Shown: positions 4,749 to 29,676 of the stretch, piece by piece
Numbering within the stretch: the stretch's first letter is position 1
How the letters are laid out: each line of letters starts with the position of its first letter
IMG/VR virus record: IMGVR_UViG_2660238507_000002
Location: 1-29,676 of that record
Source: a virus
Taxonomy: Duplodnaviria; Heunggongvirae; Uroviricota; Caudoviricetes
Length of the DNA stretch: 29,676 bases
Strand: one strand, 5' to 3'
Notes under the pieces: model-generated
What the model saw: the letters and a program-made list of their open reading frames with translations, nothing else
Told to the model about the DNA's origin: nothing
The model's database searches: none
Translations under genes and position numbers: made by a program

Positions 4749-5308
4749 GCGTCGTATCCCCCCTGATCGCTGTAGTTACTCCTGGCTTTTGCCTTCAGCC
4801 TGCGTTCACGTTCATCAAGCTGGCGTGCCACCTCCCGCGCAATATCCTGCGCACTTTGTCCTGGCTGCGTCTGAATGATGATCTGCGTCGGTGCCTCAAT
4901 CCGGTGAACGGGCGGCACAGTGGCTGCACGACTCACCATCGCTTCGCCGCCTTTCGCGGGAAGTGCCAAAGGATGCAACGGTGGAAGCTCTGCAGGCGCG
5001 GCAGCAACGCCCATCATTCCGGCAACAACGGCAGCCAGTGCAGCTGTATTTCTCCGGCTGGTCACATTTGCCGGGCCGTTAACAATTTCCGGCCCGTTTT
5101 CACCGACGATGCCAAACTGCCCGCGCGGGATATAGCCGCCGCTGTCATACATCCCCGCAAAGCCATATCCCCATGATGGAAAACCACCCGATGGCATCAT
5201 CACTTTAGCTGGCGCTCCACTGGCACTGCTGCGACGCGGGCTTGCTTCATCGGGCAACGCAGCGGGTTTACTTACTGCGCCGTTGTCGTCTTTGCGCCGC
5301 ACGGCATC
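4745..5308 (-). pseudogene. T: tail tape measure protein, C-terminal segment
   Basis: Minus-strand frame encodes tape-measure C-terminus (..SGGYIPRGQFGIVGENGPEIVNGPANVTSRR..IIIQTQPGQSAQDIAREVARQLDERERR..); upstream of about 5310 this frame stops looking like protein. Confidence 0.7.
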
Positions 5309-5980
5309 ACTGACGGGGAATGTCCTGAAAACTGTAGCAGGTGTGCCGGTTGCACTGTTGCGGTCTGGATTATCCGGTTTACGTGCTGTTGCTGTGATGT
5401 TTATGAATCCACTGGCAGCACTACGCGGTGGACTGGCTGCCGCAGGCGCGGTGCTGCGAGTACTGGCATCCGGTCCGCTGGCGATGCTGCGCGTTGCCCT
5501 GTATGCCATATCTGGTCTGTTAGGTGCTCTGCTCAGTCCGATAGGTCTTGTGGTTACTGCACTGGCGGGCGTGGCGCTGGTTGTCTGGAAATACTGGCAA
5601 CCCATCACCGCATTTCTCGCTGGTGTGGTGGAAGGATTCAAAGCGGCGGCAGGTCCCATCAGTGCTGCATTCGAACCACTTAAGCCTGTGTTTCAGTGGA
5701 TTGGCGACAAAGTGCAGGCGTTGTGGGGTTGGTTTACTGATCTGCTGACGCCTGTTAAATCGACCTCTGCCGAACTGCAGAGCGCAGCGGCAATGGGGCG
5801 ACGATTCGGGGAGGCTCTGGCGGAGGGGCTGAATATGGTCATGCATCCGCTGGACTCCCTGAAATCCGGTGTTTCCTGGTTGCTGGATAAACTCGGCATT
5901 GTCAGTAAAGAAGCTGCAAAGGCGAAACTGCCGGAAAGCGTGACGCGTCAGCAACCTGCGACGGTGAATGCAGACGGTAA
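5283..5980 (+). pseudogene. T: tape-measure-like coding segment on the opposite strand (apparent internal inversion of T)
   Basis: Plus-strand frame gives protein-like, tape-measure-like sequence (..LVVTALAGVALVVWKYWQPITAFLAGVVEGFKAAAGPISAAFEPLKPVFQWIGDKVQALWGWFTDLLTPVKSTSAELQSAAAMGRRFGEALAEGL..) while no minus-strand frame here is both open and protein-like; boundaries approximate. Confidence 0.55.
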
Positions 5981-8821: not shown

Positions 8822-8830
8822 GTTGTCCCC

Positions 8831-9963: not shown

Positions 9964-9981
9964 TGTATCAGTGCTGATACA
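9964..9981. promoter_or_regulatory. Ogr/B activator binding site (TGT-N12-ACA) of the V-operon late promoter
   Basis: TGTATCAGTGCTGATACA, a perfect-dyad TGT-N12-ACA element between S and V. Confidence 0.6.
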
Positions 9982-9985
9982 AAAA

Positions 9986-10432
9986 TCACCCCGCCAACCA
10001 TTGCAGAATCATGTCGCGGGTCATTGCCTCAACATCATCATTTACGCCCAGAAGGCGACGCTCTGCGTAACGGACCTCCGGTCCTTTGCGGCTGACGCGA
10101 TCACGCAGGCCATAATGGTGGACGCGGGCAATGCGCTGCACCTTACCTTCAAACTGCACGCTGGCAGAGTCCTCGCTGGCGGCGGTTTTCAGGTATTTTG
10201 TGGTGCGAAGTTTTGTAAACATCTGCCGTTTGATACGGCCTTTTTTACTGCGTGCTGTTACTCGCCTCGGTTCATAGCTGCTGCCATCAGGATTGCGTTG
10301 CATCCTGATGTTCTGCTGCTGTGTCCGGCGCAGTTCCTGCGCCAGCTGGCGCATCATGCGGCTTCTGGCGGCTGGTTCCAGATTCGCCAGCAAGGCACTC
10401 AGCCAGTCGTCCACCTTCTGCAGTTCAGCCAC
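9986..10432 (-). CDS. S: tail completion protein S
   Basis: 148-aa ORF following R, start overlaps R stop; matches P2 gpS size and position. Confidence 0.8.
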   Translation of the reverse strand: MAELQKVDDWLSALLANLEPAARSRMMRQLAQELRRTQQQNIRMQRNPDGSSYEPRRVTARSKKGRIKRQMFTKLRTTKYLKTAASEDSASVQFEGKVQRIARVHHYGLRDRVSRKGPEVRYAERRLLGVNDDVEAMTRDMILQWLAG

Positions 10433-10877
10433 GTTTCACCGTCCACATTTCTTCAGGTGCATCAGGTTCCGCTATAGCTTCAACGCTCGACACACTACCG
10501 TCAGTGCTGACCAGCACACGCTCCGTCAGTTGCAGGTTCAGGCTGATATCACAGACATCGTTGCGCAGAATATCCACCTCAAAGGTGAATAGTTTTTCCC
10601 GTAACGCCGGGTTATTGATGGCATCGGGCTGGTTATCCCTCAGCCACAGCAAAACCGGGGCCATCAGCAGATTCTGGTCGCCGCTGAAATCCTCAATCAC
10701 CGCGTTCAGGGTGTAACGGTACTCCCACGACATGGAGTTGGCCCCCGTGGCAACCAGCGAACCGTTATCCACAAACAGATGCAGTTTGTCCGGGTTATTG
10801 CGGACATAAGGCACCGCTTTATTGAGGGCGTGGCGCAGGGATTGTGGTTTGTTCACTGTTTCGCTCCTGACACGCAA
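10425..10877 (-). CDS. R: tail completion protein R
   Basis: 150-aa ORF after the lysis cassette, as in P2. Confidence 0.8.
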   Translation of the reverse strand: MRVRSETVNKPQSLRHALNKAVPYVRNNPDKLHLFVDNGSLVATGANSMSWEYRYTLNAVIEDFSGDQNLLMAPVLLWLRDNQPDAINNPALREKLFTFEVDILRNDVCDISLNLQLTERVLVSTDGSVSSVEAIAEPDAPEEMWTVKRG

Positions 10878-11109
10878 TAATCATGTCCACTTTGTCTGCA
10901 CAGACCGCCCAGGCGGCCTCCGTTTCATCCAGCAACGCATTCAGATCACCGTTAGTGCGCGGTGCTGCCTGCTCCAGCCGACACGGCGTCACTCGCGGAC
11001 AACCACTGACGGTAAGCTGCACCTCCGGTGAGTGCCGGACGTTCCCGCAGCCGGATAATGTCAGCAGGCAAAGGAGTATCAGCCCAGTGGCGTAAATCCT
11101 CGTTCTCAC
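10819..11109 (-). CDS. lysC: Rz1-like outer-membrane lipoprotein spanin (LysC)
   Basis: 96-aa ORF in alternate frame overlapping lysB 3' end; signal peptide with lipobox LSGC; Pro-rich. Confidence 0.7.
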   Translation of the reverse strand: MRTRIYATGLILLCLLTLSGCGNVRHSPEVQLTVSGCPRVTPCRLEQAAPRTNGDLNALLDETEAAWAVCADKVDMIIACQERNSEQTTIPAPRPQ

Positions 11110-11380
11110 GTTTCAGTTCCTCGATCCGGCGTTGTCGTTGTCTCAGCTGTGCGCTGGTCTGTTCTGCTTCGGCATAGAGCCGCGCCTGCTCCCGGTTATT
11201 GGTTTCAGTCAGAATGGACAGGCTGATAAGCTGGCTGTTGCTCTTTGCCAGTGCCTGGCTTTTGCTCTGCAGCTCGTTTGCCTGCGTGCTGATGGTCTGG
11301 CTGGCATCAGCCAGCCGCCACGTCTGCCAGCCCAGCGCCGCCAGTAATAACGCCAGCACAACCAGCAGCAACCGGTTCAT
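10952..11380 (-). CDS. lysB: Rz-like inner-membrane spanin (LysB)
   Basis: 142-aa ORF with N-terminal TM helix then coiled-coil (Gln/Arg/Glu-rich). Confidence 0.8.
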   Translation of the reverse strand: MNRLLLVVLALLLAALGWQTWRLADASQTISTQANELQSKSQALAKSNSQLISLSILTETNNREQARLYAEAEQTSAQLRQRQRRIEELKRENEDLRHWADTPLPADIIRLRERPALTGGAAYRQWLSASDAVSAGAGSTAH

Positions 11381-11754
11381 GCTGCTACCTGTTGCGCCAT
11401 CTGATTACGGGTGATCCAGAAGGCAATAACGGTCAGCAGATAAAAGACCAGGGTAATAGCCCACCCCGTCCATGCGAGACTTACAACAATCAGCAATCGC
11501 ATCACCCAACAGATAAATACATTTTCTTTTCGGGTAATTGTCTTCAGCAAAGATGCCCTTAACTCCTGCCAGAGCGGGCCATTCTGAATTAACGCAGCCA
11601 GTGCTACCGGAATTACCGCCCATGTCAGCAAACAGGCTACCCAAACGCCGGACGCTGCCAGTACCGGAAAGATCCCCTGCGGATACACCATTGCTGCGAT
11701 TAACAGCGCCATCCATAACATCAGAAACAGTCCGCTGATTAATTTCTTTTTCAT
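11377..11754 (-). CDS. lysA: lysis regulatory membrane protein LysA
   Basis: Multi-TM small ORF between endolysin and lysB; ATG at 11754 (MKKKLISG...) chosen over upstream alternative start at 11826. Confidence 0.65.
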   Translation of the reverse strand: MKKKLISGLFLMLWMALLIAAMVYPQGIFPVLAASGVWVACLLTWAVIPVALAALIQNGPLWQELRASLLKTITRKENVFICWVMRLLIVVSLAWTGWAITLVFYLLTVIAFWITRNQMAQQVAA

Positions 11755-11755
11755 T

Positions 11756-12268
11756 TCAGTTTGCTCCCTGTAAACACCAGGCCATCTCCCGCGCACGGCG
11801 GTTATCCAGCCCCTGATTAAACACACCTTTTACATAAACCCAGCGCGGCAACTGTCGGCACGCATCCGCCCAGCGCCGCTGATTGAGCAATTTCACCAGC
11901 GTGGAACTACAGGCATTGCCCGTCCCCACGTTGAAGGCAAACGACACCGTAGCGTCATACACCTTCTGTGGTGGCTGTTGCTTCACACACCTTTCCAGTG
12001 CCCGCTCCACACGCAGCACGTTGGAGATCAGCCCTTCTGCTGCCTGTCGTTCCGTGATTGTTTTGCCGGGAATGACGCCCGATGTATTACCAATGCCGTC
12101 GGTCCAGACACCCGCGCTGCACTGATACGGCTGCAGACGACAGCCTTCGTAATCGGCAATCAGTTTCAGCCCCTCCACGGAGGTGTGAAGCTGCTGAAAA
12201 CCCGGCAGCGTGGCAGCAATAGCCAGCACGGCCCCGACAAGGCAGCGTTTAACGATTGATGGATTCAT
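11756..12268 (-). CDS. K: endolysin (lysozyme family)
   Basis: 170-aa ORF with N-terminal signal-anchor-like segment and lysozyme-like core (..LKLIADYEGCRLQPYQCSAGVWTDGIGNT..). Confidence 0.85.
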   Translation of the reverse strand: MNPSIVKRCLVGAVLAIAATLPGFQQLHTSVEGLKLIADYEGCRLQPYQCSAGVWTDGIGNTSGVIPGKTITERQAAEGLISNVLRVERALERCVKQQPPQKVYDATVSFAFNVGTGNACSSTLVKLLNQRRWADACRQLPRWVYVKGVFNQGLDNRRAREMAWCLQGAN

Positions 12269-12464
12269 AGTCCTCCCGCGAGATCTGCCCGTCGCGCAGA
12301 AGCTGGTAGGCTTTGTGTTTGTAGTACCAGTTGATAGCCAGCATCAGCACACCAATCATCAGGCCGCCCAGCGTTGAGGCATCCTTGATGGACAAATCGC
12401 CCAGCCAGGCCAGCACGACGGCGATGCAATACGTGATAAAGGCGCTGATTCGCTCAAGCGTCAT
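12249..12464 (-). CDS. putative holin
   Basis: 71-aa ORF with two hydrophobic helices and charged C-terminus immediately upstream of endolysin. Confidence 0.6.
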   Translation of the reverse strand: MTLERISAFITYCIAVVLAWLGDLSIKDASTLGGLMIGVLMLAINWYYKHKAYQLLRDGQISREDYESINR

Positions 12465-12467
12465 AAT

Positions 12468-12671
12468 TCAGTCCCATAGCTGGACGGTCTGCACGGTGGT
12501 GGTGGTCGGTATGTCCGGCAGCTCCACCTGCAGCCCGTGAGGTAAAAAGGGGCCGTATTCGGCAAGCCCCGGATTTGCCTTCAGTACCTGCTCCGTGACA
12601 CCCTGCGTGCGCCCGTAATGACGCCAGCAAAGCGCGTCCACCGTGTCATACTGATACGCACGCACTTTCAT
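12468..12671 (-). CDS. X: tail protein X
   Basis: 67-aa ORF with LysM-like sequence (..YGRTQGVTEQVLKANPGLAEYGPFLPHGLQVELPD..) as P2 gpX. Confidence 0.85.
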   Translation of the reverse strand: MKVRAYQYDTVDALCWRHYGRTQGVTEQVLKANPGLAEYGPFLPHGLQVELPDIPTTTTVQTVQLWD

Positions 12672-13230: not shown

Positions 13231-13881
13231 TCAGCGGCTGTCATTGCGCAGTCTGCGCTCCAGCTGCTGTTTGTCTTTTTTCACGCCACAGCGGGGATCG
13301 AGCTGTAACGCATGGTTGAGATGATTAAGGGCGGACGCCGGATTGCTTTCACTCAGGACAACGCCAATCGCTTTATGCAGACGCGCCCGTGACTGGTCCG
13401 GCATATCCAGACCGTCTGTCAGCTCCAGCGTCTGCAGCAACAGATCAGCATCAAAGCCGGTGGCGGCAAGCATTGCGCTCTGCGCGGCGTCTGCCATTTC
13501 CTCTGCCAGCACGGTCTGCACGTTGCGGTTACCCAGCGGCATCACCCAGCCATGACGCAGGGCATGACGCCCGATCTCCAGCGCTCCGGCATAATCTCCG
13601 GCATCAATGCGCCACAGCATCACGTACATCAGCACGTCATCCTGTTGAGCGCCTCCGGCAGCCAGGACACCCTCTGCCCAGGCGGCGTACTTCGGCAGCA
13701 GCTCCACCTTGATTTCCGCTTTTTTGACCGTGGACTGAACGCCCTTGAGACGGCGGCGGTCTTCCGCCAGTTGCAGCAGCATCAGGTCATAGCCCGATGC
13801 GTGGCGAACACTGCCGCCCTCGCGGGCGGCCTGTTCAGCCTGAACGCGCAGGCGATGCTGCCGTGCGGGACTCAGGCTCAT
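13231..13881 (-). CDS. M: terminase endonuclease (small) subunit M
   Basis: 216-aa ORF, sequence resembles P2 gpM (..RHASGYDLMLLQLAEDRRRLKG..VLMYVMLWRIDAGDYAGALEIGRHAL..). Confidence 0.8.
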   Translation of the reverse strand: MSLSPARQHRLRVQAEQAAREGGSVRHASGYDLMLLQLAEDRRRLKGVQSTVKKAEIKVELLPKYAAWAEGVLAAGGAQQDDVLMYVMLWRIDAGDYAGALEIGRHALRHGWVMPLGNRNVQTVLAEEMADAAQSAMLAATGFDADLLLQTLELTDGLDMPDQSRARLHKAIGVVLSESNPASALNHLNHALQLDPRCGVKKDKQQLERRLRNDSR

Positions 13882-13884
13882 GGA

Positions 13885-14244
13885 TTACGCTCCTGTTTCG
13901 GCTGCGGCGGCGCTGAAATCACCAATCTGGATGTTTTCCACCAGTGCGGCGCAGCGGTAGTCCTCAACCACATAGGCTTCGTTAACGGATTCAAAGTTTT
14001 CAATCCGGTCACGTTTCGGGTTGTCGATAACTGAACGGCGGCGGGTGTCTTCCTGCCAGTAGATGGACAGGTTATCCAGACGGGTGATCAGCAGCGCATT
14101 CGGCGGGAAGATCTGGTCTTCCAGCGTCTGCTGCACAGACGGCTCCACGGTGAACTTGCTGGACAGTTCTTCAACTGCCACACCGTTCAGACGCGCCAGC
14201 TGCTGCAGGTAAGCGTTAAAAGCAAAGCGGGTATTCTTCTTCAT
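13885..14244 (-). pseudogene. N: major capsid protein N with large in-frame internal deletion
   Basis: Only 119 codons between O and M where a ~357-aa gene is expected; retains gpN-like N-terminus (TRFAFNAYL..KFTVEPSVQQTL) joined to gpN-like C-terminus (LITRLDNLSIYW..NPKRDRIENFESVNEAYVVEDY..GDFS). Confidence 0.75.
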
Positions 14245-14260: not shown

Positions 14261-15094
14261 TCAGCAATTGGTCAGAGTGTCAGCGGGGGCGTTACCGCCT
14301 GTTGCACGCTGGCGGTAGTCCTGGCGGCTGTCTTCATGGCTCAGCTTGTCCACCAGTTCGTCAAAGGCGGTCAGCTGTGCCTGCAGGGCTGTCTCCAGCT
14401 CAGACAAGCGTTCTTCCTGTTCAGACAGGGATTTTTCGGTGCGCGCACTCAGGTTTTGCTGCTCAGTGGCGACCAGCTCCACGGCCTTATGCACATCAGA
14501 GAACCGGGCATCGTCTGACTGCTCTTTTTTGGTGAACAGCGCCGTGACGCGGGCAAACAGGGACGGTTTGTCGTCCTGGACTTCCTCCAGTTCGATCACC
14601 GTTTCTTCTGCAGCGGTAAAGAGATTGGCAGGATTCTGCTTGCGGTTTGCCAGCGGGTTATGGGCTGCACTGGCGCTGAATGTCAGCATTTCAGTGCCCA
14701 GACTGGCAGGGTCATCAGTGGCAGCCAGGCCGACCAGGTAGGCTTTGCCCGTATCAGCGAACTTCGGGCTGACTTCCATAGAGGTGAATAATTTCTGGCC
14801 TTTTTTCACCAGTTCCACCAGGGACTCCGTTGGCTCAACGTCGGCATACAGCGCCATCTTGCCTGCCAGCGGACCTTCCTTGATTTCTTCAGCAAACAGC
14901 GCCGTCACCTTGCCGTAGCGGTTAAAGGTGCTGTCCGGCAGATAAGACTTGATGTGCTCAAGGTTAATCAGCGCGGTATACACCGCCGGGTTGTAGCTGG
15001 CTGCCATCTGTTCCAGCCATTCACGCTGGATTTCGCGTCCGTCGGTGGTGGCACCTTCCACCCCGATGCGAAAACGCTTTGCTTTCACTGTCAT
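14261..15094 (-). CDS. O: capsid scaffold protein O
   Basis: 277-aa acidic coiled-coil-rich ORF, first gene of leftward late operon. Confidence 0.8.
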   Translation of the reverse strand: MTVKAKRFRIGVEGATTDGREIQREWLEQMAASYNPAVYTALINLEHIKSYLPDSTFNRYGKVTALFAEEIKEGPLAGKMALYADVEPTESLVELVKKGQKLFTSMEVSPKFADTGKAYLVGLAATDDPASLGTEMLTFSASAAHNPLANRKQNPANLFTAAEETVIELEEVQDDKPSLFARVTALFTKKEQSDDARFSDVHKAVELVATEQQNLSARTEKSLSEQEERLSELETALQAQLTAFDELVDKLSHEDSRQDYRQRATGGNAPADTLTNC

Positions 15095-15236: not shown

Positions 15237-17003
15237 ATGAACACCACACTGACACCCGCAGATCTCGATCCCCGTCGGCAGGCCATGCTGCTGTACTTTC
15301 AGGGATACCGCGTCGCCCGCATTGCTGAAATGCTGGGCGAGAAAGTTGCAACCGTTCACAGCTGGAAAAAACGCGACAAGTGGGGTGACTATGGGCCGCT
15401 GGATCAGATGCAGCTCACCACCGCCGCACGCTACTGCCAGCTCATTATGAAGGAGCACAAAGAAGGGAAAGATTTCAAAGAGATTGACCTGCTGGCGCGC
15501 CAGTCGGAACGCCACGCGCGGATCGGCAAGTTTAACAATGGCGGCAACGAAGCCGACTTAAACCCTAACGTCGCCAACCGTAACAAAGGCCCGCGCCGTC
15601 AGCCGGAAAAGAATGTTTTCACCGATGAACAGATTGAGAAGCTGGAAGAAATCTTTCATTCCTCCATGTTCAACTACCAGCGCCACTGGTGGGAAGCCGG
15701 AAAAACCAACCGCATCCGCAACCTGCTGAAGTCACGCCAGATCGGCGCGACCTTCTATTTTGCCCGTGAAGCCCTGATTGACGCCCTGCTGACCGGACGT
15801 AACCAGATTTTCCTTTCCGCCAGTAAGGCACAGGCCCACGTCTTTAAGCAGTACATCATCGACTTCGCCAAAGAAGTGGATGTGGAACTGAAAGGCGATC
15901 CGATGGTGCTTCCTAACGGGGCCACGCTTTACTTCCTCGGCACCAATGCCCGCACGGCCCAGAGTTATCACGGCAACCTGTATCTGGATGAATATTTCTG
16001 GATACCGAAATTTCAGGAGCTACGCAAAGTGGCTTCCGGTATGGCTATTCACAAGAAATGGCGGCAGACCTATTTTTCCACACCATCCAGCCTGACCCAC
16101 AGTGCTTATCCGTTCTGGTCCGGTGCGCTGTTCAACCGCGGACGCAACAAAGCCGACAAGGTGGACATCGACCTGTCCCACAACAATCTGGCCCCCGGCC
16201 TGCTGTGCGCTGACGGGCAATACCGCCAGATAGTCACCGTCGAAGATGCGGTGCGCGGCGGCTGTAACCTGTTCGACCTTGACCAGTTGCGCATGGAATA
16301 CAGCCCGGACGAATACCAGAACCTGCTGATGTGCGAGTTTGTGGACGATCTCGCGTCCGTGTTCCCGCTCAGCGAACTACAGGCGTGCATGGTGGACAGC
16401 TGGGAAGTCTGGACCGACTTTCATGCACTGGCGCTGCGCCCGTTTGGCTGGCGCGAAGTGTGGATCGGTTATGACCCGGCAAAAGGTACGCAGAACGGCG
16501 ACAGCGCCGGATGCGTAGTGGTGGCACCGCCAGCCGTGCCGGGCGGTAAGTTCCGCATTCTTGAGCGTCACCAGTGGCGCGGGATGGACTTCCGCGCCCA
16601 GGCTGACGCCATCAAAAAACTGACTGAACAGTACAACGTGACATACATCGGTATCGACTCAACCGGCGTCGGTCACGGGGTTTACGAGAACGTGAAAGCG
16701 TTTTTTCCTGCCGTCCGGGAGTTTGTCTACAACCCCAACGTTAAAAATGCCCTGGTACTCAAGGCCTACGACATTATCAGTCACCGCCGTCTGGAGTTTG
16801 ACGCCGGACACACCGACATAGCGCAGTCATTTATGGCAATCCGTCGCGCCACCACCGCCAGCGGCAACCGCCCGACCTATGAAGCCAGCCGCAGCGAAGA
16901 AGCCAGCCATGCCGATCTGGCGTGGGCAACAATGCACGCACTGTTTAACGAACCGCTGCAGGGCGAGTCCGCCAATACCAGCAATATTGTGGAGATTTTT
17001 TGA
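15237..17003 (+). CDS. P: terminase ATPase (large) subunit P
   Basis: 588-aa ORF; translation resembles P2 gpP. Confidence 0.85.
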   Translation: MNTTLTPADLDPRRQAMLLYFQGYRVARIAEMLGEKVATVHSWKKRDKWGDYGPLDQMQLTTAARYCQLIMKEHKEGKDFKEIDLLARQSERHARIGKFNNGGNEADLNPNVANRNKGPRRQPEKNVFTDEQIEKLEEIFHSSMFNYQRHWWEAGKTNRIRNLLKSRQIGATFYFAREALIDALLTGRNQIFLSASKAQAHVFKQYIIDFAKEVDVELKGDPMVLPNGATLYFLGTNARTAQSYHGNLYLDEYFWIPKFQELRKVASGMAIHKKWRQTYFSTPSSLTHSAYPFWSGALFNRGRNKADKVDIDLSHNNLAPGLLCADGQYRQIVTVEDAVRGGCNLFDLDQLRMEYSPDEYQNLLMCEFVDDLASVFPLSELQACMVDSWEVWTDFHALALRPFGWREVWIGYDPAKGTQNGDSAGCVVVAPPAVPGGKFRILERHQWRGMDFRAQADAIKKLTEQYNVTYIGIDSTGVGHGVYENVKAFFPAVREFVYNPNVKNALVLKAYDIISHRRLEFDAGHTDIAQSFMAIRRATTASGNRPTYEASRSEEASHADLAWATMHALFNEPLQGESANTSNIVEIF

Positions 17004-18028
17004 TGGGAAAGAGTAAGAAGAACCGCGCTGTGTCGACGAACCAGATTCAGCATAAAAGCCAGACTTCAGCCGAAGCATTCAGCTTTGGCGATCCCGTTCC
17101 TGTTCTGGACCGCCGCGAACTGCTGGACTATGTGGAATGCGTACAGACAGATCGCTGGTATGAGCCGCCAGTGAGTTTTGACGGACTGGCGCGAACCTTC
17201 CGCGCTGCCGTGCATCACAGTTCACCAATTGCGGTGAAATGCAACATTCTGACCAGTACCTACATCCCTCACCCGCTTCTCAGCCAGCAGGCTTTTTCAC
17301 GTTTTGTGCAGGACTATCTGGTATTTGGTAACGCATACCTGGAGAAACGCACGAACCGGTTCGGTGAAGTTATCGCCCTTGAGCCTGCTCTGGCAAAATA
17401 CACCCGACGTGGGTTAGACCTGGATACCTACTGGTTTGTGCAATACGGCATGACAACCCAGCCGTATCAGTTCACGAAAGGCAGCATCTTTCATCTGATG
17501 GAACCCGATATCAACCAGGAGATCTACGGCCTGCCCGGTTATCTTTCTGCCATTCCGTCAGCCCTGCTCAACGAGTCCGCCACGCTGTTCCGACGCAAAT
17601 ATTATATTAATGGCAGCCATGCAGGATTCATAATGTACATGACCGATGCCGCTCAGAACCAGGAGGATGTGAACAACCTCCGCAACGCGATGAAAAGCGC
17701 CAAAGGGCCAGGCAACTTCCGCAACCTGTTTATGTACTCGCCTAACGGCAAAAAAGACGGGCTTCAGATCATCCCATTGTCAGAAGTCGCGGCGAAAGAT
17801 GAGTTTTTGAATATCAAAAATGTTAGTCGCGATGACATGATGGCGGCACACCGCGTGCCGCCGCAGATGATGGGGATTATGCCTAATAATGTTGGGGGAT
17901 TTGGGGATGTGGAGAAGGCAAGCAAAGTGTTTGTGCGGAATGAGTTAATGCCATTGCAAAAGAATTTTGAATCACTGAATAACTGGGCTGGAAAAGAAAT
18001 TATTTCATTTAATGACTACTGTTTTTAA
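17000..18028 (+). CDS. Q: portal (capsid vertex) protein Q
   Basis: 342-aa ORF overlapping P stop, as P2 gpQ. Confidence 0.85.
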   Translation: MMGKSKKNRAVSTNQIQHKSQTSAEAFSFGDPVPVLDRRELLDYVECVQTDRWYEPPVSFDGLARTFRAAVHHSSPIAVKCNILTSTYIPHPLLSQQAFSRFVQDYLVFGNAYLEKRTNRFGEVIALEPALAKYTRRGLDLDTYWFVQYGMTTQPYQFTKGSIFHLMEPDINQEIYGLPGYLSAIPSALLNESATLFRRKYYINGSHAGFIMYMTDAAQNQEDVNNLRNAMKSAKGPGNFRNLFMYSPNGKKDGLQIIPLSEVAAKDEFLNIKNVSRDDMMAAHRVPPQMMGIMPNNVGGFGDVEKASKVFVRNELMPLQKNFESLNNWAGKEIISFNDYCF

Positions 18029-18063: not shown

Positions 18064-18993
18064 TTATTCTGATACTACAGGTTGATATCTCTGGATTTCA
18101 TCAATCAGCTCTGATGAATATTTCGCACAAAGCCTATTAATAAATAATGGCTCAACACTTTTGCAATACGATAAATATCCTTGAAGAAATAGCCTTTTCT
18201 TCTCATCAAGAGCCTCCCATTTAAAAATAAGCGATTTAACCATCCTTTTTTTATCTCTCCCTAAGGATACTCCACCATCTGTTGTCAAAGTCACACCCGT
18301 AACCATCATTTTATTTTTCTTTGACATATGCAGTGTCTTTTTTCTATTAATCCATAGTTTTGATGGGTATTTCAAATTTTTTAAATTCGAGCGTAAAAAA
18401 GGTGGTATTTGCTTCAATACATTTTCTTCGTTTGTTGAGAAGTACATATCATCAGCATAGCGTGTATATGTTATACCTTTTGAAAGACAAAATTCATTCA
18501 ATATATGATCTAATTCATAGCATATAGCATTGCTTACCACAGGGGAACTAACAGCACCCATAGTCAGTCTCCCGTTAAAGCATACTATTTTTACCAGCAA
18601 ATCAGTATCATCCTTTGACCAATCATCACTGAAGAAATGCTTGTTGTCGTTTATAAATCTCTCAACATCACTTTTCTTAATTGAATCAAAAAAACCTTCA
18701 AAGTCCATCTTAAGCATAAAACGTTTAGCTTTGTGAATGCTTGCATGTTTGAACACTGATGAACCCTGCTGATATGCTACAGCATTTGGATGAATCGGCA
18801 ATTTCGACAGAACATTATCATGAAGTAATCTCTGCAAAACTTTTAATTCTTTAGAGGGCTGATAGACGATTCTTGTCCCACCGCCTTTTTTAGGTACAGA
18901 AAATTTACCATAATGCGAGTTAGCATCATTTGCAACTTTTAATATAAAATCAGCTTCTAACAGTAAAACTTTAGCTAGATACTCAATTAACAT
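18064..18993 (-). CDS. retron-type reverse transcriptase
   Basis: 309-aa ORF with RT motifs: N-terminal FSVPKKGGGTRIVYQP, motif A KMDFEGFFDSI, motif B GAVSSPVVSNAICY, motif C YTRYADDMYF, and retron-typical VTGV downstream; AT-rich; ATG 1 nt after upstream gene stop. Confidence 0.85.
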   Translation of the reverse strand: MLIEYLAKVLLLEADFILKVANDANSHYGKFSVPKKGGGTRIVYQPSKELKVLQRLLHDNVLSKLPIHPNAVAYQQGSSVFKHASIHKAKRFMLKMDFEGFFDSIKKSDVERFINDNKHFFSDDWSKDDTDLLVKIVCFNGRLTMGAVSSPVVSNAICYELDHILNEFCLSKGITYTRYADDMYFSTNEENVLKQIPPFLRSNLKNLKYPSKLWINRKKTLHMSKKNKMMVTGVTLTTDGGVSLGRDKKRMVKSLIFKWEALDEKKRLFLQGYLSYCKSVEPLFINRLCAKYSSELIDEIQRYQPVVSE

Positions 18994-18994
18994 A

Positions 18995-20047
18995 TCACAT
19001 GATCCTTTCTAATTCTGCTTTGAATTTAGATATCATTATTAAATCGGATAATGATCTAGCTCTACTTCGTTGAATACTTTCAACTAAATCTTTCATCTTT
19101 TCATGATTAAAAAATTTAATATAATCGACACATGAATAATGGGTCACGCCCTCAAATCGACTTTCCTTAAAAATCCCAAGGGCAACTCCAATAGAAACAA
19201 CAAATGAAATATTTTTATTAATTTTATAATTTATCAACCTACCTGTGATATTAATAATCTCAGGAATTGTTATTGGACCTAAAGAAGATATAACAACGAG
19301 CACAAAAAATAAAAAAATTTTTGGTGAATATTTGTAATCACCTATTGAATTTGTATTAGTTATGTTTGATTGAACTTTCCTATTTAGCCTTTCATTTATT
19401 TTAGGCATACACGTTAAAATTGTCTCAAATTCAGTATAGATTGTAGGGCCAAATTTGGATTCACTATCAACCCATTTTACGGGCCCTGTATTGATAAATG
19501 ACTTATGACTTTCAAACTTTTTATCTAATATAGGAAGAAGTTTTTTACGTAAAACAGGACTTAATGAAAATGCGCCCAATTCAGCTACAGTGCCATAACT
19601 CTCTACGAGAATAATTACCACATCAGAAAAATCCGCAAGCCATTCTTCAAGTGATAGCGCATTCACATTACTATGAGTTCCTAAATTGCTAATTACTTCC
19701 CATGCTAATTCTGCTCGAAAAGTAACAAATTCTTTATGATGCTTAGCAATATATTTTTCCAGCATCCCTCTATTTGAACAATAAGTCTCATCTCCTCCAC
19801 AAATAAATAATACTTTTGGCAGGATATAATTAAAAGAATTCAAGTTACTTGGAAAAAAACTTGAAATAAAATTTTCTTTTGCTCGTAAATATCTAGGATG
19901 TTTAAACCACATAACAATTAATGCCCATACAAGAGTTCCCGAGACACAAGTTAGCCTGGTGTCTATAAATGACACAAGGCTAACTTGTGTCGAGATACCA
20001 AGCAATCCATACGAGTTGGCTAAACACCAACCACTAGAAAGTAACAT
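18995..20047 (-). CDS. retron effector candidate: NDT/SLOG-like domain followed by two predicted transmembrane helices
   Basis: ORF translationally coupled to RT; contains ..VVIILVESYGTVAELGAF.. (resembles nucleoside deoxyribosyltransferase-like Glu motif) and hydrophobic stretches KIFLFFVLVVISSLGPITIPEII and ISFVVSIGVALGIF. Start uncertain: first 46 codons overlap a strong hairpin and look non-protein-like, so true start may be ATG at 19912. Confidence 0.6.
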   Translation of the reverse strand: MLLSSGWCLANSYGLLGISTQVSLVSFIDTRLTCVSGTLVWALIVMWFKHPRYLRAKENFISSFFPSNLNSFNYILPKVLFICGGDETYCSNRGMLEKYIAKHHKEFVTFRAELAWEVISNLGTHSNVNALSLEEWLADFSDVVIILVESYGTVAELGAFSLSPVLRKKLLPILDKKFESHKSFINTGPVKWVDSESKFGPTIYTEFETILTCMPKINERLNRKVQSNITNTNSIGDYKYSPKIFLFFVLVVISSLGPITIPEIINITGRLINYKINKNISFVVSIGVALGIFKESRFEGVTHYSCVDYIKFFNHEKMKDLVESIQRSRARSLSDLIMISKFKAELERIM

Positions 20048-22179: not shown

Positions 22180-24594
22180 TTAATACAGGTTCCGCCACTT
22201 ATCATCTTCCTGCAAACGCTGGTTCCGATAGAAGATACGCAGGCCTGCTCCTGACGGAATGCTGCCGCCGCGAAGGAGTAAATCGACCTCTTTCTCGCTG
22301 CCATCAAATCCTCTGGACTTCAGTTCATAGACGAGCTGCTGTCGTTGATGGTCTGTAATTCGCTGTTTGTAGTCTCTACGCCGTTTCGGTTTCACCAGGC
22401 GTAACCTTGCAGCCAGTTCCCGGCGCTCTTTTTTGTTCATACTGTGCAGGTAATCGTGCAACTCCTTGTCATCCATACGGGTGATATCCGTTCTGGTATC
22501 CCCATCAGCTGATTTGTCTTTCCCTTGTTGGTACAAATTTTCAGCAAGGGGACAGTTATTGCCACGAGTCCAAGGGGCGCAAGCGCCCTGGTCGGCTGCC
22601 GCCTCCTGAACGTCAACGGCTTTACGGACCATTTTCCACTTCACTGCATGAGTGCAGATCTTGCCCTCTGCAATGGGTGACCAGATGCCATAAATACGAA
22701 TACCGTGATCGCCATAGGCGGTCGGCTCTTCGTTGATTTCATAAGCGGTTCTGATGAGGTGATATTTACGGGGAACCAGTACGCCGCCCTGCTTCATGAT
22801 GTAGGTGGCAAAGCAACCAGCATCAGCTGCAGCCAGAATGGCATCAAGGCGCGGGTTATCCAGTACCGGCGCACCTGCTTTTTTGTCACCCTGTTGCCTT
22901 GCCGCCTGACCAGCCAGCAATCGCAGTTCACGGTAAGCCTGACGCCCCGGAATGCCAAAGAAGCGGAATTGCTGAACACGATGCAGAGACGCCCAGGCAT
23001 TAACGTATTCAGCGTTATCACGCAGAGATTTACCCGTTTCCTTGCTGATCTCGCCAGCCAGACCACGCCCGTCAATGTTCTTACTGATGTATTTCGCGAT
23101 GTAGCTTGTTGGTGTACCTTTGCGCGGGTTTATCAGCTCAGACTTAAAGCGTGGTCCTGTGTTATTACCCAGCTCCTCGCGGTCTTCACGAATGGCAAAC
23201 TTACGCAACAAAGCAGTAATGGCGCGGCGATCTTTTTTGCGCATAAAACACAACAGGTGCCAGTGAACTGTACCGTCATGATGCGGCTCAGCCACCCGCA
23301 CGCCATACCAGCGCAATCCGGCTTTGTACATCGCCTTACGAAATGCAGCAAACATGCCGACCAGATAATCACTGCTTTGTCTTACCGTCGCATTTGTCCA
23401 GTTCGGGTTGGGCCTGCCGTTATTTAGCGTGGAATGGAAACGTGACGGACAGGTGATGGTGTAGAAAACGGCGCAGTCACCGCGCATTTCCGCGATAAGC
23501 TCCAGACCTTTAACACATGCCATCATCTCATTGCGGCGATGCGCCGGGTTGCTACTACTGGCGTTTACCACGTCCTCCATATCCAGCGTGTCGCCGTCTT
23601 CGTTCACCAGTTCATGAGAACGGAAAAACTCCAGCGACTTACGGCGCTGCTCACGTTTATGCATCACGGCTTCATAGCTGACATAGGGAGATGCTTTTTT
23701 GCTGACCAGGCAAACAGCACGCAACTGCTCTTCCCGCCATTCGAAACGCATCTTCCATAATTTCCGATACCACCAGTCGGCGCACAACATACGCGCCAGC
23801 GAACCCGGAATGAGTTCATAGGGTACGGGTTTACGGCGGTTTCTTTTCCGGCGGAGTTGCTCAAACGCAGGAGGGATGACATCCAGACGCAGGGTTTCCG
23901 CCGCCACCCTTTCCCATGTCTTGCGGATTTCTTCTGGCTTAACGTCATCGGTGGCATACAAATCACCACAAGCTGCATCAAGGCACATGCTCATATGCGC
24001 GGCAACAAGGGTAGACAGGCGCTTCACCTGATCCTGACTCATTTCAGGCAAGATCAGCAGGCCGTCCAGCCCTTCATGGCTTGCCATAAAACGAAAAGAT
24101 GCAGATAGCTGGCTGTCGCGTACATGCTCTAGTCGTTCCAGACATGGTTTAATCGTCTCACGCAAATAGCGGGAATAAGCCTTTGGCCTGCCCAGGCTGC
24201 TGAAGTATTCAATACGTTGCATCAGCGGCTTGCTGATATGGGAAGGCTGGGCGTTAACGTCCGCCAGTATGACCATGTCCGGATTAAAACGCTGCTGCTC
24301 ATGCACCAGCTTTGCCCGGCTAATGAGCTTATCCTGCTCCATTTCGCGCTGGACAGGATCACGGGATTCATTAAAGAAATAACGCTCCCAGACCTGATCA
24401 CTCAGTGCCTCGCGGCGCAGTTGTTCCTGCTTGTTATCGGCAGCGTACAGAGTGATCAGGTTTGAAAGCGCAGAAACCGGCGCAACTTCCGCCGGGTCCA
24501 GATAAGGGTTAATCGCCTTTTTCGGGCTGTTCCATGAGAATGCTGCGGCGGCCTCGTTAAAGCCGCTGCAGTTGTTCATATCAGCATGTCTCAT
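22180..24594 (-). CDS. A: replication initiation protein A (rolling-circle endonuclease)
   Basis: 804-aa ORF at the position of P2/186 gene A; start overlaps dam stop. Confidence 0.8.
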
Positions 24595-25448
24595 GCACGT
24601 ACTCCGTACACGGCAGAACTATCCACGCCACGCGAAGGATCAAATCCCACCCAGCAGCGCGCCCCAGAAACAGCGATGATTTCTGTTGCAGATTTACTCT
24701 CACCAGCTGCTACGCCGATGCTGCGTTTTGCCTTGATGTAGTGGTGAGTAAAATTGCGATACAGCGAACGGATCAGGGATGTGTCACTGTTAGAAACAAT
24801 GACCGGATGTCCTTCTGATGACCGATGTTCAAGAACGGATGCCAGGTGATACTGGTCATCTTCAGTGAAACCATCAGTGTGATAGCTGGAAAACGTACCG
24901 TCATACGGCGGATCGCAATACACCACATCCCCCGCCTTCAACATCGCCAGCGTTTCATCAAAGCTGGCGCAGATAAACGTTGCTCGTTGGGCTTTCTCTG
25001 CAAATGCGCGAATTTCTTTTTCAGGGAAATACGGATTTTTATAATTACCGTAGGGAATGTTGAAATGCCCGCTCTTGTTATAGCGACATAACCCACGGTA
25101 ACCGTGACGATTGAGATACAGGAAATATACCGCTTTCATGAAATCAGTAATTTCAGTTGAGTAATTAAACTCCTGCCTTATGTTGTAATAAGCCACCTCC
25201 CTGTTTGCTTCCTTAAATAAAACTCTGGCGCGAGATATAAACGATTCACAATCAGCGGCAACCTTTTTATAGAGGTTGATTAAATCAGGATTAATATCCG
25301 CAACCAGATAGCTGGGATAATCCGTCTCCATCATCACAGCACAGGAACCCGCGAAAGGTTCAACCAGTCGCGGGCCAGCTGGAAGATGTTTTTTCAGTTC
25401 GGACATTACGGCGGTTTTATTTCCCGCCCATTTCAGGATGGTGCTCAT
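24591..25448 (-). CDS. dam: DNA adenine methyltransferase (Dam-like, GATC)
   Basis: Motif [11 protein letters not shown] and motif IV DPPY; start taken at ATG 25448 ([11 protein letters not shown]), overlapping TraR-like stop. Confidence 0.85.
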
Positions 25449-25672
25449 ACAGCACCTCCGTTGTAATGTTTGCCTTTCAGCTCTGCGATTTCCTGACAGG
25501 TAATGCAAAGCTGCACACCTGGAATGGCGCGGCGGCGTGCTGGCGGAATTGGCGCTTCACACTCAATGCAAAGCACGCGGGACACGCCCGGCGTTTTGGC
25601 ACGGGCAGCACGGATATGGCGCTGGCGTTCTTCTTCAACGCGCTGCTGTACGAGATCCATTGCATCAGCCAT
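25445..25672 (-). CDS. TraR/DksA-family C4 zinc-finger protein
   Basis: 75-aa ORF with CxxC...CxxC (CIECEAPIPPARRRAIPGVQLCITCQ). Confidence 0.8.
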   Translation of the reverse strand: MADAMDLVQQRVEEERQRHIRAARAKTPGVSRVLCIECEAPIPPARRRAIPGVQLCITCQEIAELKGKHYNGGAV

Positions 25673-25911
25673 TAGTGGATCTCCTGCGCTTCGTTCTGGA
25701 TTGCTTCAGCAGTTACACGCAGTAGTTCTGCTGCTTCGACGTGGTTTAGCTGGCGGGATGTGATATGACACGCCAGGCTATCAAGGCGAGCTGCCATTGC
25801 TTCAGCCCTTGCCCGGCGTTCTTCCAGACGAGCCTCTGTCAGTAAAATATTAAGCCCTGCATCATCCGGTCCGGTTTTAGTCTTGAGGGTTTCAATATTA
25901 CGCATAATCAA
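25672..25911 (-). CDS. hypothetical phage protein
   Basis: 79-aa ORF translationally coupled to TraR-like gene. Confidence 0.5.
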   Translation of the reverse strand: MIMRNIETLKTKTGPDDAGLNILLTEARLEERRARAEAMAARLDSLACHITSRQLNHVEAAELLRVTAEAIQNEAQEIH

Positions 25912-25972
25912 TTCTCCTGAATTTAGATAAAGGGATACCCGGCGGGTTTACGCCATTAATTTCATTAGTTGG

Positions 25973-26314
25973 TTAATTCGGCATGGTTAGCCGTCTGGGA
26001 AATAAGCTCACCACTGCACGAAAATGATTCATTGCTTTAATCAACTCCCGCTTTTCGTCAGTGGTCAGCTCATTAATGCTGATGCTATGACGTTCAGCTG
26101 GAATTTTTGCCATAAAGAATATGGCAGCCAGTGCTCGTTTATTCTGTTCGTTATTGATATCCCGTGGATCACGCATATCTTTAATAAACCGCTCAAGCTC
26201 TGACTCAATATTCAGGCCAAATACTTTCGCCCTTAACTCCGCAATGTGATTAAGTCCATTCAGGCGTTCACCGGGGCTTAATGGAACAGTTGCTGCAGCG
26301 CCATTAATTGCCAT
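25973..26314 (-). CDS. hypothetical phage protein
   Basis: 113-aa ORF in early operon; no family recognised. Confidence 0.45.
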   Translation of the reverse strand: MAINGAAATVPLSPGERLNGLNHIAELRAKVFGLNIESELERFIKDMRDPRDINNEQNKRALAAIFFMAKIPAERHSISINELTTDEKRELIKAMNHFRAVVSLFPRRLTMPN

Positions 26315-26336
26315 ACTTCATATCCCCCAAACGCAG

Positions 26337-26561
26337 CTATCGTTCTTTGTTCTTACGGTAACGCTCAAGAGGAGATACATTTTTTCGTATCGTCTCTTTA
26401 ACCTGCTCTCCCCGTAAAAACGTCCCATCCTTTAACGCGAAAAAGTAACTGCCATCGCCCGACAATGACGGATAGCAACAGAGCAAATCATCTTCAGGTA
26501 CTGAATAACTCTCCCCTCTGTAACGAAACTGATAAACCACTTCACTTTCTGCCGCATACAT
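26337..26561 (-). CDS. hypothetical small phage protein
   Basis: 74-aa ORF with GGAG RBS upstream. Confidence 0.45.
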   Translation of the reverse strand: MYAAESEVVYQFRYRGESYSVPEDDLLCCYPSLSGDGSYFFALKDGTFLRGEQVKETIRKNVSPLERYRKNKER

Positions 26562-26728
26562 TTGGACTTTCTCCGTTTCCTCGTGGTCAATTCAGACAGC
26601 AATTCATCTTGTGAATGACATGGATGCCAGCGTTTTCCATCCTCACCCGTGATCCAGCCGTGACCGTAGTGCATTGCCGGGCTTTGTTTTACCAGCAGCG
26701 ATGCAAATGATGGTTCTTTCGTCAGCAT
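26432..26728 (-). CDS. hypothetical small phage protein (C-terminal extent doubtful)
   Basis: ATG at 26728 preceded by GAGGTG RBS directly downstream of cII; overlaps next ORF in another frame. Confidence 0.3.
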   Translation of the reverse strand: MLTKEPSFASLLVKQSPAMHYGHGWITGEDGKRWHPCHSQDELLSELTTRKRRKSKCMRQKVKWFISFVTEGRVIQYLKMICSVAIRHCRAMAVTFSR

Positions 26729-26735
26729 AAGCACC

Positions 26736-27254
26736 TCACAGCAAACCGAATGAAGCACCGAGGCCAGTCACGGTATCAACTGCACTCGCCATCGCAGGGT
26801 TAGCCTGTAAACGGGCCTGCAATGAAACAGCAGCCAACGCCATCAGTCGTGTTACAGAGTTAATGCTGCTGATAGCATCACGACGACCTGCACTGGTTTT
26901 TACATCGCCAGATACCGCACCTGCAGCAACACGCCCGATCTCTGCGGTTGCACTCATGACGTAATGTGGCAGTTTCTCTTTTGCCACCTCATTAATTGGT
27001 ACGCATGGCAGGCAGTGAATCTGTGCCAGAAAACCATCTACCAACGTTGAATCTTCAGTCAGATCGGTAAGCAGCCAGATTTCTGGTGCGGTTAATAAAT
27101 GAGGTTGAGCTGGGTTCAGCTTGTTCCGCAGAATCTGCACATTCATGCCCGCACGTTCTGCCAGTTGCACCAGATTGTGGCGCAGTGCGAATGCACGACA
27201 GGCTTCATCAAAATGTGGATGTTTGGAAACTTGGTAATCAAACATGGTTTTCAA
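26736..27254 (-). CDS. cII: CII-like lysogeny establishment regulator (186 type)
   Basis: Translation (..[43 protein letters not shown]..) resembles phage 186 CII; true start may be the internal Met. Confidence 0.75.
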
Positions 27255-27309
27255 CTCCGAACTTATCGCAAAATCGAACTCAGCGTCTTATTGCGAAAAT
27301 AGACGTCTA

Positions 27310-27513
27310 TTAAGCAGACAAAGCATCAACAGTCAGAGCAGCCAGGTTAATCATTACCTTTTCACGTTTTTTGTCTTTACGAAGACGATGACGAGGTAGT
27401 CGGCCATCAGCCAACATGTCGTTAATCGTATCAATAGAAAGGCCAGTCAGTTCGCTATAACGTTCGATTGTGACATGTGGTGTATTCAGAGTAATTGAAA
27501 TGTTAGGTGTCAT
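27310..27513 (-). CDS. apl: Apl/Cox-like excisionase and repressor of the lysogenic promoter
   Basis: 67-aa basic ORF first in the rightward early operon, divergent from cI; RBS AAGGAA. Confidence 0.7.
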
Positions 27514-27658
27514 AAGGCAACATTCCTTCTAGATATGGCTTGTGGCGAGCCGTTGTTTGTCGTGATTAGTAGTGAAGGCTCCAAAAGAACACTTCTGGTT
27601 CAACTTTAAGATCGCTTTTGGAATCTGTCAACGAATTTTGGATTTCTTTGGAGGACTT
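27514..27658. promoter_or_regulatory. lysis-lysogeny switch region (pR / pL promoters and operators)
   Basis: Intergenic region between divergently oriented apl-cII and cI-int operons; individual -10/-35 elements not confidently assigned. Confidence 0.5.
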
Positions 27659-28228
27659 GTGGATTTCAATAGCGGCGGTAAGAAAGCCATAGAACGTTTA
27701 GTTGAAGCATATGGGTTCGGTACCCGTCAGGCTCTCTGTGATCATTTAGGTGTTTCTAAGAGCACCATGGCAACGCGCTATATGCGTGATATTTTTCCAG
27801 CAGATTGGGTAATCCAGTGCGCCCTTGAAACCGGCACCTCGCTTAATTGGCTAACAACAGGGCATGGTTCAAAGCAAGCATCAGCAAATACAAATACTAT
27901 AGAAGTAGAAAAATATTTATTGTCTGATGGAGCATTGCAGAAAGACGGTTTTTATATTTTTGATAAGGAATTTCTACCCTCTACGTTTAAAAAACCTTTT
28001 GTCATCACAGATAACAATTCTGAATTTATTTGTGATAAAGAATTTGATGATATACGTGATGGTAAATGGGTAATAAGTATTGATGGCGAAATAACGATCC
28101 GTGACATTACTCGTTTACCCGGTGGAAGAATCTTCGTCGAGGGTGGAAACAGAGCCTTCGAATGCAAGATAGAAGACATTGAAATAATTGGTAAAATTAT
28201 AAGTTTAACAGTCAAGTATGTTAAATAG
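27659..28228 (+). CDS. cI: CI-like immunity repressor (186 type)
   Basis: GTG start preceded by GGAGGA RBS; N-terminal helix-turn-helix (TRQALCDHLGVSKSTMATRY); position between switch region and int. Confidence 0.7.
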   Translation: MDFNSGGKKAIERLVEAYGFGTRQALCDHLGVSKSTMATRYMRDIFPADWVIQCALETGTSLNWLTTGHGSKQASANTNTIEVEKYLLSDGALQKDGFYIFDKEFLPSTFKKPFVITDNNSEFICDKEFDDIRDGKWVISIDGEITIRDITRLPGGRIFVEGGNRAFECKIEDIEIIGKIISLTVKYVK

Positions 28229-28243
28229 TACCGGGAGGAAACT

Positions 28244-28435
28244 ATGCTTGGTAAGGTATTTTTTGTGGTTTTGTCATGTTCTTTGTTATTAAACCCACTA
28301 ACTACCTATGCTAGAAATTATCCCTGCTCAGGGAAAAAGGGAGGTGTTTCTCACTGTACCTCAGATGGCAAATTCGTTTGCAATGATGGAACTATTAGTA
28401 AATCCAAAAAAATCTGTACTAAAAACTCACGATAA
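28244..28435 (+). CDS. small secreted cysteine-rich protein (moron)
   Basis: 63-aa ORF with strong RBS GGGAGGAAACT, N-terminal signal peptide (..[10 protein letters not shown]), ~40-aa mature region with 5 Cys; AT-rich. Confidence 0.55.
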
Positions 28436-28623
28436 CTTTTGCTTTTATATCTGCGTCTAAAATAAAAATGAGCCGCAGGTTAACCGCAAAAGTTACATGC
28501 TCACATAGCAAAAAGAATAGCCAACTTCATTATGGCTTCAGTGAGATGTATGGTCGTAGGATTTCATACATTGACACTGGTTATACATACAGTAAAAATG
28601 CTCTCTACTGGAGGGCATTTTTT

Positions 28624-29676
28624 ATGGCAGTACGAAAACTCACCACAGGGAAATGGCTTTGCGAATGTTACCCCGCCGGACGTAGTGGGCGTCGTGTGCG
28701 TAAACAATTCGCCACCAAAGGCGAAGCTCTGGCTTTTGAGCGCCACACGATGGAAGAAACCGAAGCAAAGCCCTGGCTGGGTGAATCAGTGGATCGTCGA
28801 ACACTGAAAGACGTAGTTGAGCTATGGTTCAAACTACATGGTAAATCTCTAACCGCTGGGCAGCATGTCTATGACAAATTGCTGTTGATGGTTGACGCTC
28901 TGGGCAATCCCCTTGCAACCGATCTCACATCTAAAATGTTTGCCCACTATCGAGATAAACGCCTGACGGGTGAGATCTACTTCAGCGAGAAATGGAAAAA
29001 AGGAGCAAGCCCAGTCACTATTAACCTGGAGCAAAGCTATCTTAGTAGTGTTTTTAGCGAACTATCCCGCCTGGGCGAATGGTCGTATCCGAACCCACTG
29101 GAGAACATGCGAAAATTCACCATCGCAGAAAAAGAGATGGCATGGCTTACCCATGAGCAGATTGTTGAATTGCTGGCTGATTGTAAACGTCAGGACCCAA
29201 TTCTGGCACTGGTAGTTAAGATATGCTTAAGCACTGGCGCACGCTGGCGTGAAGCCGTAAATCTTACCCGCTCACAGGTGACCAAATACCGAATTACCTT
29301 TGTAAGAACGAAGGGGAAGAAAAACAGAAGCATCCCTATCAGTAAAGAGCTTTACGAAGAGATCATGGCGCTTGATGGGTTCAATTTCTTCACAGACTGT
29401 TATTTTCAATTTTTATCCGTGATGGAAAAAACGTCTATCGTGCTCCCTCGCGGTCAACTCACACACGTTCTGCGCCATACGTTTGCGGCGCACTTCATGA
29501 TGTCGGGTGGAAACATTCTGGCCTTACAAAAAATTCTCGGACACCACGATATAAAAATGACTATGCGTTACGCACATCTGGCACCGGATCATCTGGAAAC
29601 GGCGCTTCGTTTCAATCCTCTGGCAACGCTGCCAAGTGGCGACAAAGTGGCGGCAGCGGTTGGCATTACCCCGTAA
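28624..29676 (+). CDS. int: tyrosine integrase (P2/186 family)
   Basis: C-terminal catalytic region with R..HxxR..Y signature (..ARWREA..HVLRHTFA..IKMTMRYAHL); start taken at ATG 28624 (MAVRKL...); ORF-track start 28468 is an upstream in-frame start. Confidence 0.85.
   Translation: MAVRKLTTGKWLCECYPAGRSGRRVRKQFATKGEALAFERHTMEETEAKPWLGESVDRRTLKDVVELWFKLHGKSLTAGQHVYDKLLLMVDALGNPLATDLTSKMFAHYRDKRLTGEIYFSEKWKKGASPVTINLEQSYLSSVFSELSRLGEWSYPNPLENMRKFTIAEKEMAWLTHEQIVELLADCKRQDPILALVVKICLSTGARWREAVNLTRSQVTKYRITFVRTKGKKNRSIPISKELYEEIMALDGFNFFTDCYFQFLSVMEKTSIVLPRGQLTHVLRHTFAAHFMMSGGNILALQKILGHHDIKMTMRYAHLAPDHLETALRFNPLATLPSGDKVAAAVGITP

Follow-up and report, generated by a model that had tools for sequence, protein, structure and literature searches.

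The stretch of DNA analyzed here, referred to as the window, comprises 29,676 nt (IMG/VR record IMGVR_UViG_2660238507_000002) and carries, at the position of the major capsid gene N of a P2-like prophage, an open reading frame (ORF) of only 119 codons. This raises the question of whether the ORF is a naturally short capsid gene, a fragment kept for some function, part of a prophage tamed by its host, or the product of a recent deletion. We conclude, with a probability of about 90%, that it is a very recent null capsid allele in a newly defective P2-like prophage of one isolate. The window consists of the prophage and its left chromosomal flank, grxA, ybjM, and ybjL, the prophage extending from ogr (2859–3074) to the stop codon of the integrase gene (29676). 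The element is a Wadgaonvirus-like member of the Peduoviridae adjoining ybjL in one Escherichia coli isolate, and the gene order around N is that of P2 (Q-P / O-N-M-L), with P and Q divergent upstream (table 1).

Table 1. Coordinates of the lesions and of the retained gene blocks of the prophage within the window.
Feature	Position	Strand	Remarks
Inversion in tape-measure gene T	5205..5980		Balanced, 776 bp; inverted 3-bp TTA/TAA ends; T split into fragments
Tail deletion, ~2570 bp	9442/9443		5' half of sheath FI, all of G, and 3' part of fiber H gone; 2-bp microhomology TA
Tail deletion, ~2537 bp	9675-9683		5' part of H, all of I, J, and W, and 3' part of V gone; GGGTA(A)CGC, imperfect 8/9-bp microhomology
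Lysis cassette: holin Y, lysozyme K, lysA, lysB, lysC	10822..12464	(-)	Full length, 100% identical to intact prophage
gpM, terminase small (endonuclease) subunit	13231..13881	(-)	216 aa, intact; starts 3 nt past N stop
N remnant, major capsid gene	13885..14244	(-)	119 codons: N-arm and C-terminal 74 aa
Junction of 699-bp deletion	14110/14111		2-bp microhomology GA (+ strand), TC (coding strand), common to both parental flanks
gpO, capsid scaffold/protease	14261..15094	(-)	277 aa, intact, 100% identical to MS14386; first gene of late O operon
gpP, terminase large subunit (588 aa), and gpQ, portal (341 aa)	15237..18028	(+)	Both intact
Cargo: retron St85-family reverse transcriptase and effector	18067..20047	(-)	Intact, 100% identical to MS14386
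Early region: replication gene A, Dam, TraR, CII, Fil, apl/cox-like, CI, integrase	22183..29676		Full length

The ORF is open from the native ATG to the native TAA, and its 119-aa product matches Pfam PF05125 (Phage_cap_P2) with an E value of 4.7e-37 and a score of 128 bits (cut-off 27). The match falls into two separate stretches, the better of which aligns protein residues 46–105 with profile positions 268–327 of 327. By family profile the ORF belongs with the P2-family major capsid proteins, and it is flanked by O and M on the same strand in the late O operon. Relative to the 352-aa capsid protein of the MS14386 prophage, it consists of parent residues 1–45 joined to residues 279–352 with no substitutions (100% identity), and at the DNA level the loss amounts to 699 bp, or 233 codons (46–278), in frame. 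Escherichia phage 500465-1 (NC_049342.1; Peduoviridae, Wadgaonvirus), the closest named phage taxon at 97.7% identity over M-N-O, has a full-length capsid gene, different cargo, and a tail-fiber invertase module; when aligned with it, the query splits into two pieces that overlap by 2 nt and are separated by 699 bp in the subject. The native ribosome-binding site (GGAG), the ATG, the TAA, and the 3-nt spacer to the start of M are all unaltered around the remnant. An earlier note, made from the nucleotide sequence and its ORFs alone, had described a capsid gene reduced to 119 codons by an in-frame internal deletion, on which ORF, PF05125 match, and protein alignment agree. The gpN-like termini that it reported also hold, but its estimate of about 240 missing central codons does not, the number being 233 from a parent of 352 aa (357 aa in P2 gpN).

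A capsid gene that is naturally short would have relatives of the same length. We used 1.9 kb around the ORF as a query for relatives, which matched 54 phage records and 1,091 records in 1,086 complete E. coli genomes. All 54 phage records, as well as the best 30 complete-genome matches listed, aligned in two pieces spanning approximately 2600 bp. P2 gpN (NP_046760.1) belongs to the same family, PF05125, with the same O-N-M order, and is 58% identical over the retained segments; it is a 357-aa protein with a complete HK97 fold, whereas the window protein has no equivalent of residues ~46–283. The alignment with P2 N thus identifies a deletion derivative, and we exclude a naturally short variant on the grounds that the flanks are 100% identical to the 352-aa gene and the junction is present in none of 5,426 complete E. 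coli genomes.

The structure of P2 gpN (PDB 7JW1) allows the missing part to be placed in the fold (PMC7552001). The N-arm of gpN carries helix alpha0 at residues 1–14, the gpO cleavage site lies at 31/32, contacts of the E-loop and P-domain include Lys64 and Glu102, the spine helix is alpha3, and the Sid-responsive sir loop occupies residues 183–224 of the A-domain (PMC7552001). By protein alignment, the deleted span corresponds approximately to P2 residues 46–283, so that Lys64, Glu102, and the sir loop fall inside it and the gpO cleavage site outside. Of the HK97-type fold, the remnant has lost the E-loop, the spine helix, the sir loop, and most of the A-domain, and it does not amount to a complete fold of N-arm, E-loop, P-domain with spine helix, and A-domain in some 340–360 aa. 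Because the core of the fold is missing, the structure predicts that the remnant would form neither capsomers nor a shell. The ORF is a gene remnant and no working member of the PF05125 family.

The junctions suggest how the allele may have arisen. Illegitimate recombination at the 2-bp microhomology would have removed codons 46–278, leaving the N-arm and the last 74 residues and abolishing capsomer formation. As the deletion is in frame and the native ribosome-binding site, the stop codon, and the downstream gene M are untouched, the 119-aa polypeptide would still be translated once the Ogr-dependent late O operon fires, and no polarity would be expected on M, L, X, or the lysis genes. Being in frame is insignificant by itself because one deletion in three is expected to be so by chance. 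We dropped the reading frame as a signal on this ground, and also because the two tail deletions of the same prophage (2570 and 2537 bp) are, unlike the N deletion, out of frame and the other in-frame alleles described below come from a biased search. An engineered deletion was likewise rejected: no FRT or loxP scars were found, and junctions with 2-bp microhomology carry no design signature.

The junctions and the 119-aa protein occur only in draft genome GCA_001463645.1 and in the Logan assembly of read set SRR2724128, which represent one isolate. A 200-bp probe across the N junction, counted as matching when covered to 80% or more, was found uncut in none of the 5,426 complete E. coli genomes, nor did any of these genomes cover in a single stretch the probes for the two tail-deletion junctions or for the inversion's left end, even though the separate halves of the junction probes were present in approximately 1,000–2,100 of the 5,426. 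The exact 31-nt N junction had no match in species-representative genomes, IMG/VR, or JGI metagenome contigs. Among approximately 15 billion proteins, the 119-aa product (KSY90541.1) is a singleton from one isolate, and most of the other proteins in its 90% cluster are fragments with a "partial" annotation.

A rival reading is an assembly or sequencing artefact, in which case the deletions and the inversion would be absent from the real chromosome. A single read set lies beneath both assemblies, making a library-level artefact conceivable, and five odd junctions within one 15-kb stretch of a draft genome are unusual. Against this, two independent assemblies agree on the lesions. The window is an exact piece of NCBI contig LNIK01000019.1 (299,926 bp) of the draft genome, and window positions 3885–24244, which hold all five junctions, are identical to that contig. 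The independent Logan assembly matches window positions 6421–12663 exactly, across both tail-deletion junctions, and calls a 624-aa T fragment like the one in the window, which spans the right inversion junction; the 119-aa protein is recorded from both NCBI and Logan. Moreover, a graph assembler bridges a junction only where reads span it, and microhomologies of 2–3 bp are not sites of repeat collapse. We therefore consider an artefact extremely unlikely.

The closest relative is the intact prophage of E. coli MS14386 (NZ_LR130552.1, 3088764–3122477; capsid WP_001471287.1), which is 100% identical over the 1.9-kb query. It shares with the window prophage the ybjL / rcdA site, the late genes, and the retron St85 cargo, and differs from it in that N encodes all 352 aa, T is not inverted, and FI, G, H, I, J, W, and V are all complete; its immunity region is also different, and it has an extra DUF4041 gene. 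Lesions aside, there is one mismatch between the two over approximately 19.8 kb, from ogr to window position 22626 in gene A. From 22627, inside gene A, identity to MS14386 falls to approximately 4% divergence (window 22627–26314 versus L002 30127–33814), and past this point the window is 99.7% identical to other intact prophages such as that of strain 10034940-2. The change at 22627 is a clean mosaic recombination boundary and reflects ordinary mosaicism of the early region. The N junction was considered as a recombination breakpoint and rejected, the divergence from MS14386 beginning 8.5 kb away. Since the surrounding DNA is essentially identical to that of intact prophages, the lesions must be very recent.

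Comparison of the whole window with the MS14386 prophage, together with gene-by-gene tblastn, mapped three further lesions in addition to the N deletion, namely the two tail deletions and the rearrangement of T that the earlier note had reported (table 1). Between the two tail-deletion junctions, H is reduced to a piece of 79 residues. The T inversion neither lost nor gained a base, and no invertase gene is present in the window prophage or in its MS14386 relative. In total, five genes (N, T, FI, H, and V) survive only in truncated or split form and four (G, I, J, and W) are missing altogether, making the prophage defective. This bears out the description of a decaying prophage, with four private structural lesions in an element that is otherwise intact.

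All four lesions are confined to virion structural genes and fall within 44% of the ancestral prophage, a distribution with a chance of approximately 0.04 on the rough estimate that they were independent and uniformly placed. Four rearrangements also stand against one substitution in approximately 20 kb. The clustering exceeds what slow independent decay would give, and the lesions may have come in a burst or from a single complex event. The balanced T inversion looks, from its ends, more like a two-break exchange than a template switch.

The remainder of the prophage is in good order. Besides the blocks in table 1, full-length genes include ogr, D, U, E, E+E', FII, S, R, X, L, and DinI, as determined by gene-by-gene tblastn. 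The unlesioned genes have 98.6–100% protein identity to intact prophages at the same ybjL site, most of them 100%, and the early-region proteins are 98.7–100% identical (again most 100%) to those of the intact prophage of strain 10034940-2; the lowest protein identities are those of gene A (99.6%) and a DUF2732 protein (98.7%). The content is colinear with ordinary P2-like prophages with no extra genes, and the P4-like satellite genes sid, psu, delta, and alpha primase were not found in it. The retron St85 slot lies between the portal gene and the DinI/A region, and in related prophages at the same site this slot holds other defense cargo, namely AIPR with a HEPN-domain protein, ThsB-TIR, or GmrSD. 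Judging from the gene content, the prophage would no longer build heads or tails; the lesions would abolish particle formation, whereas derepression, excision, replication, and lysis need not be affected. The earlier note called the prophage non-inducible, which these lesions would not by themselves entail. The genes for repression, excision, replication, late-gene activation, and lysis are intact, and these functions are probably retained.

The statement in the earlier note that the regulatory, lysis, Dam, and accessory defense genes are intact is therefore accurate, all being full length including the retron cargo. From this pattern, however, the note went on to possible domestication, in which the host would retain the prophage, once tamed, for the sake of its regulatory, lysis, Dam, and defense cargo and the structural lesions would be fixed, selected steps. 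The gene content has the appearance that this reading predicts, the retron St85 reverse transcriptase and effector, Dam, CI/CII, integrase, and lysis genes being intact and virion genes alone affected, and so does the confinement of the lesions to 44% of the prophage. Yet intact prophages have identical copies of the retained genes, so that the intactness of these genes shows a lack of time rather than selection. The lesions of a domesticated prophage should be fixed across a host lineage; here the junctions are private to one isolate and no second carrier was found in the 5,426 complete genomes or in three contig collections, so that a comparison of related strains offers no fixation to report. 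Host-killing functions should also have been lost, whereas gene A and every gene of the lysis cassette remain full length; that the replication and lysis genes, which harm the host, are untouched is the opposite of the first losses expected in host-driven taming. Finally, loss of a capsid or tail gene has no obvious benefit to the host. We regard domestication as very unlikely. The 2014 PNAS study of Bobay et al., "Pervasive domestication of defective prophages," reportedly describes rapid inactivation of prophages by deletion after integration, and is said to infer domestication from conservation across strains together with purifying selection. The window allele, known from a single isolate, can show neither.

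Central deletions of N are not confined to this prophage. A protein-level homologue search with the 119-aa remnant, which recovers only alleles keeping both ends in frame, returned at least three other independent in-frame central N deletions. These are P0010 (126 aa, 678-bp deletion) at locus L008, which also lacks approximately 12.5 kb from K to T; P0016 (84 aa, 804-bp deletion) at L012, which has other deletions including Y and K and approximately 1.4 kb of unmatched sequence; and P0022 (118 aa, 702-bp deletion) at L013, which also lacks the span from lysA to S. Microhomology at their N junctions is short, amounting to 2 bp in L008 and 4 bp in L012, and L013 has a brief, imperfect match. 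Altogether, the decayed loci L008, L012, L013, L014, and L015 carry independent internal or one-sided N deletions along with further late-gene deletions, and their resolved N junctions have 2–4 bp of microhomology except for a 17-nt overlap in L015. Three to four of these five mapped loci are at the ybjL site (L008, L012, L014, and L015 being those named), and they differ from the window in breakpoints and cargo, most having lost far more (up to 12.5 kb). L008 is an ENA metagenome scaffold of 131,842 bp that combines the ybjL site, the 126-aa N remnant, and the K-to-T deletion with ThsB-TIR cargo. In contrast to the singleton window allele, the L008 type with P0010 was found in 13 contigs from several samples, which suggests possible fixation in an E. 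coli lineage in circulation.

Pseudogenes of N are common in every form. Many further alleles have an N-terminal part of N fused to out-of-frame or foreign tails, and in the same hit list such out-of-frame alleles and fusions outnumber the in-frame ones. In P0104 (116 aa, on a 4.4-Mb E. coli contig) residues 1–84 of N continue in frame into the C-terminus of M (...LNHLNHALQLDPRCGVKKDKQQLERRLRND), which implies a deletion fusing N to M.

Some breakpoints within N recur. At nt 897, between ACACC and CGCCGCC, L008 (10219–10220) and L012 (7748–7751) have the same 3' breakpoint in the CGCCGCCG run, although theirs are independent in-frame deletions of 678 and 804 bp in prophages with different cargo. 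At nt 197, L014 (~8195–8197) and L015 (~8181–8197) share a left breakpoint after GGTCA and have different joins in T. Seven truncated N alleles (P0100, P0105, P0118, P0120, P0122, P0123, and P0124) break at codon 65/66, after ...TEQSGQ, with seven different tails; five of the seven were placed at nt 197 from their protein tails, whereas L014 and L015 were placed there at the DNA level. The nt 197 position may be a deletion hot spot beside a Chi-like GCTGGGG. The window allele is at neither nt 197 nor nt 897.

The recurrence of in-frame remnants might suggest that they do something, for example that a fragment bearing the N-arm, expressed from the Ogr/Delta-transactivated late promoter, poisons the head assembly of superinfecting P2-like phages or P4-type satellites. 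The frame, ribosome-binding site, and operon context are kept in the window allele, and in P2 procapsids helix alpha0 of the N-arm grips the neighboring subunit (PMC7552001). To these may be added the three or more other in-frame central deletions, including the type present in 13 contigs. The in-frame pattern is, however, an ascertainment effect, because the search recovers only alleles with both ends in frame. The breakpoints vary between alleles, no conserved architecture is kept, since the lysis cassette is incomplete in two of the three other carriers (K to lysB are missing from L008, and Y and K from L012), and the window allele is a singleton. There is no sign of a function of its own for the 119-aa remnant, and we give next to no credence to the poisoning of head assembly. 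It is similarly hard to believe that in-frame N-arm remnants recur as a useful and cheap capsid-decoy defense. A weaker variant would be that the four lesions here came from one multi-breakpoint event and that the nt 197 and nt 897 positions are true N hot spots arising from a specific DNA-breakage process.

A recent null allele of N in a newly defective prophage has little significance beyond annotation. Annotation should describe the ORF as a pseudogene, a remnant of the capsid gene, and mark the prophage as defective in particle formation. The sharing of N breakpoints among independent decayed P2-like prophages could merit a proper census. The case also carries a warning: in an element so young that selection has had no time to act, intact cargo beside broken structural genes should not be read as domestication. 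Inactivation of prophages by deletion is an already known and ordinary event, caught here very early, and the window offers a snapshot of the earliest decay of a P2-like prophage, with four structural lesions and essentially no point substitutions.
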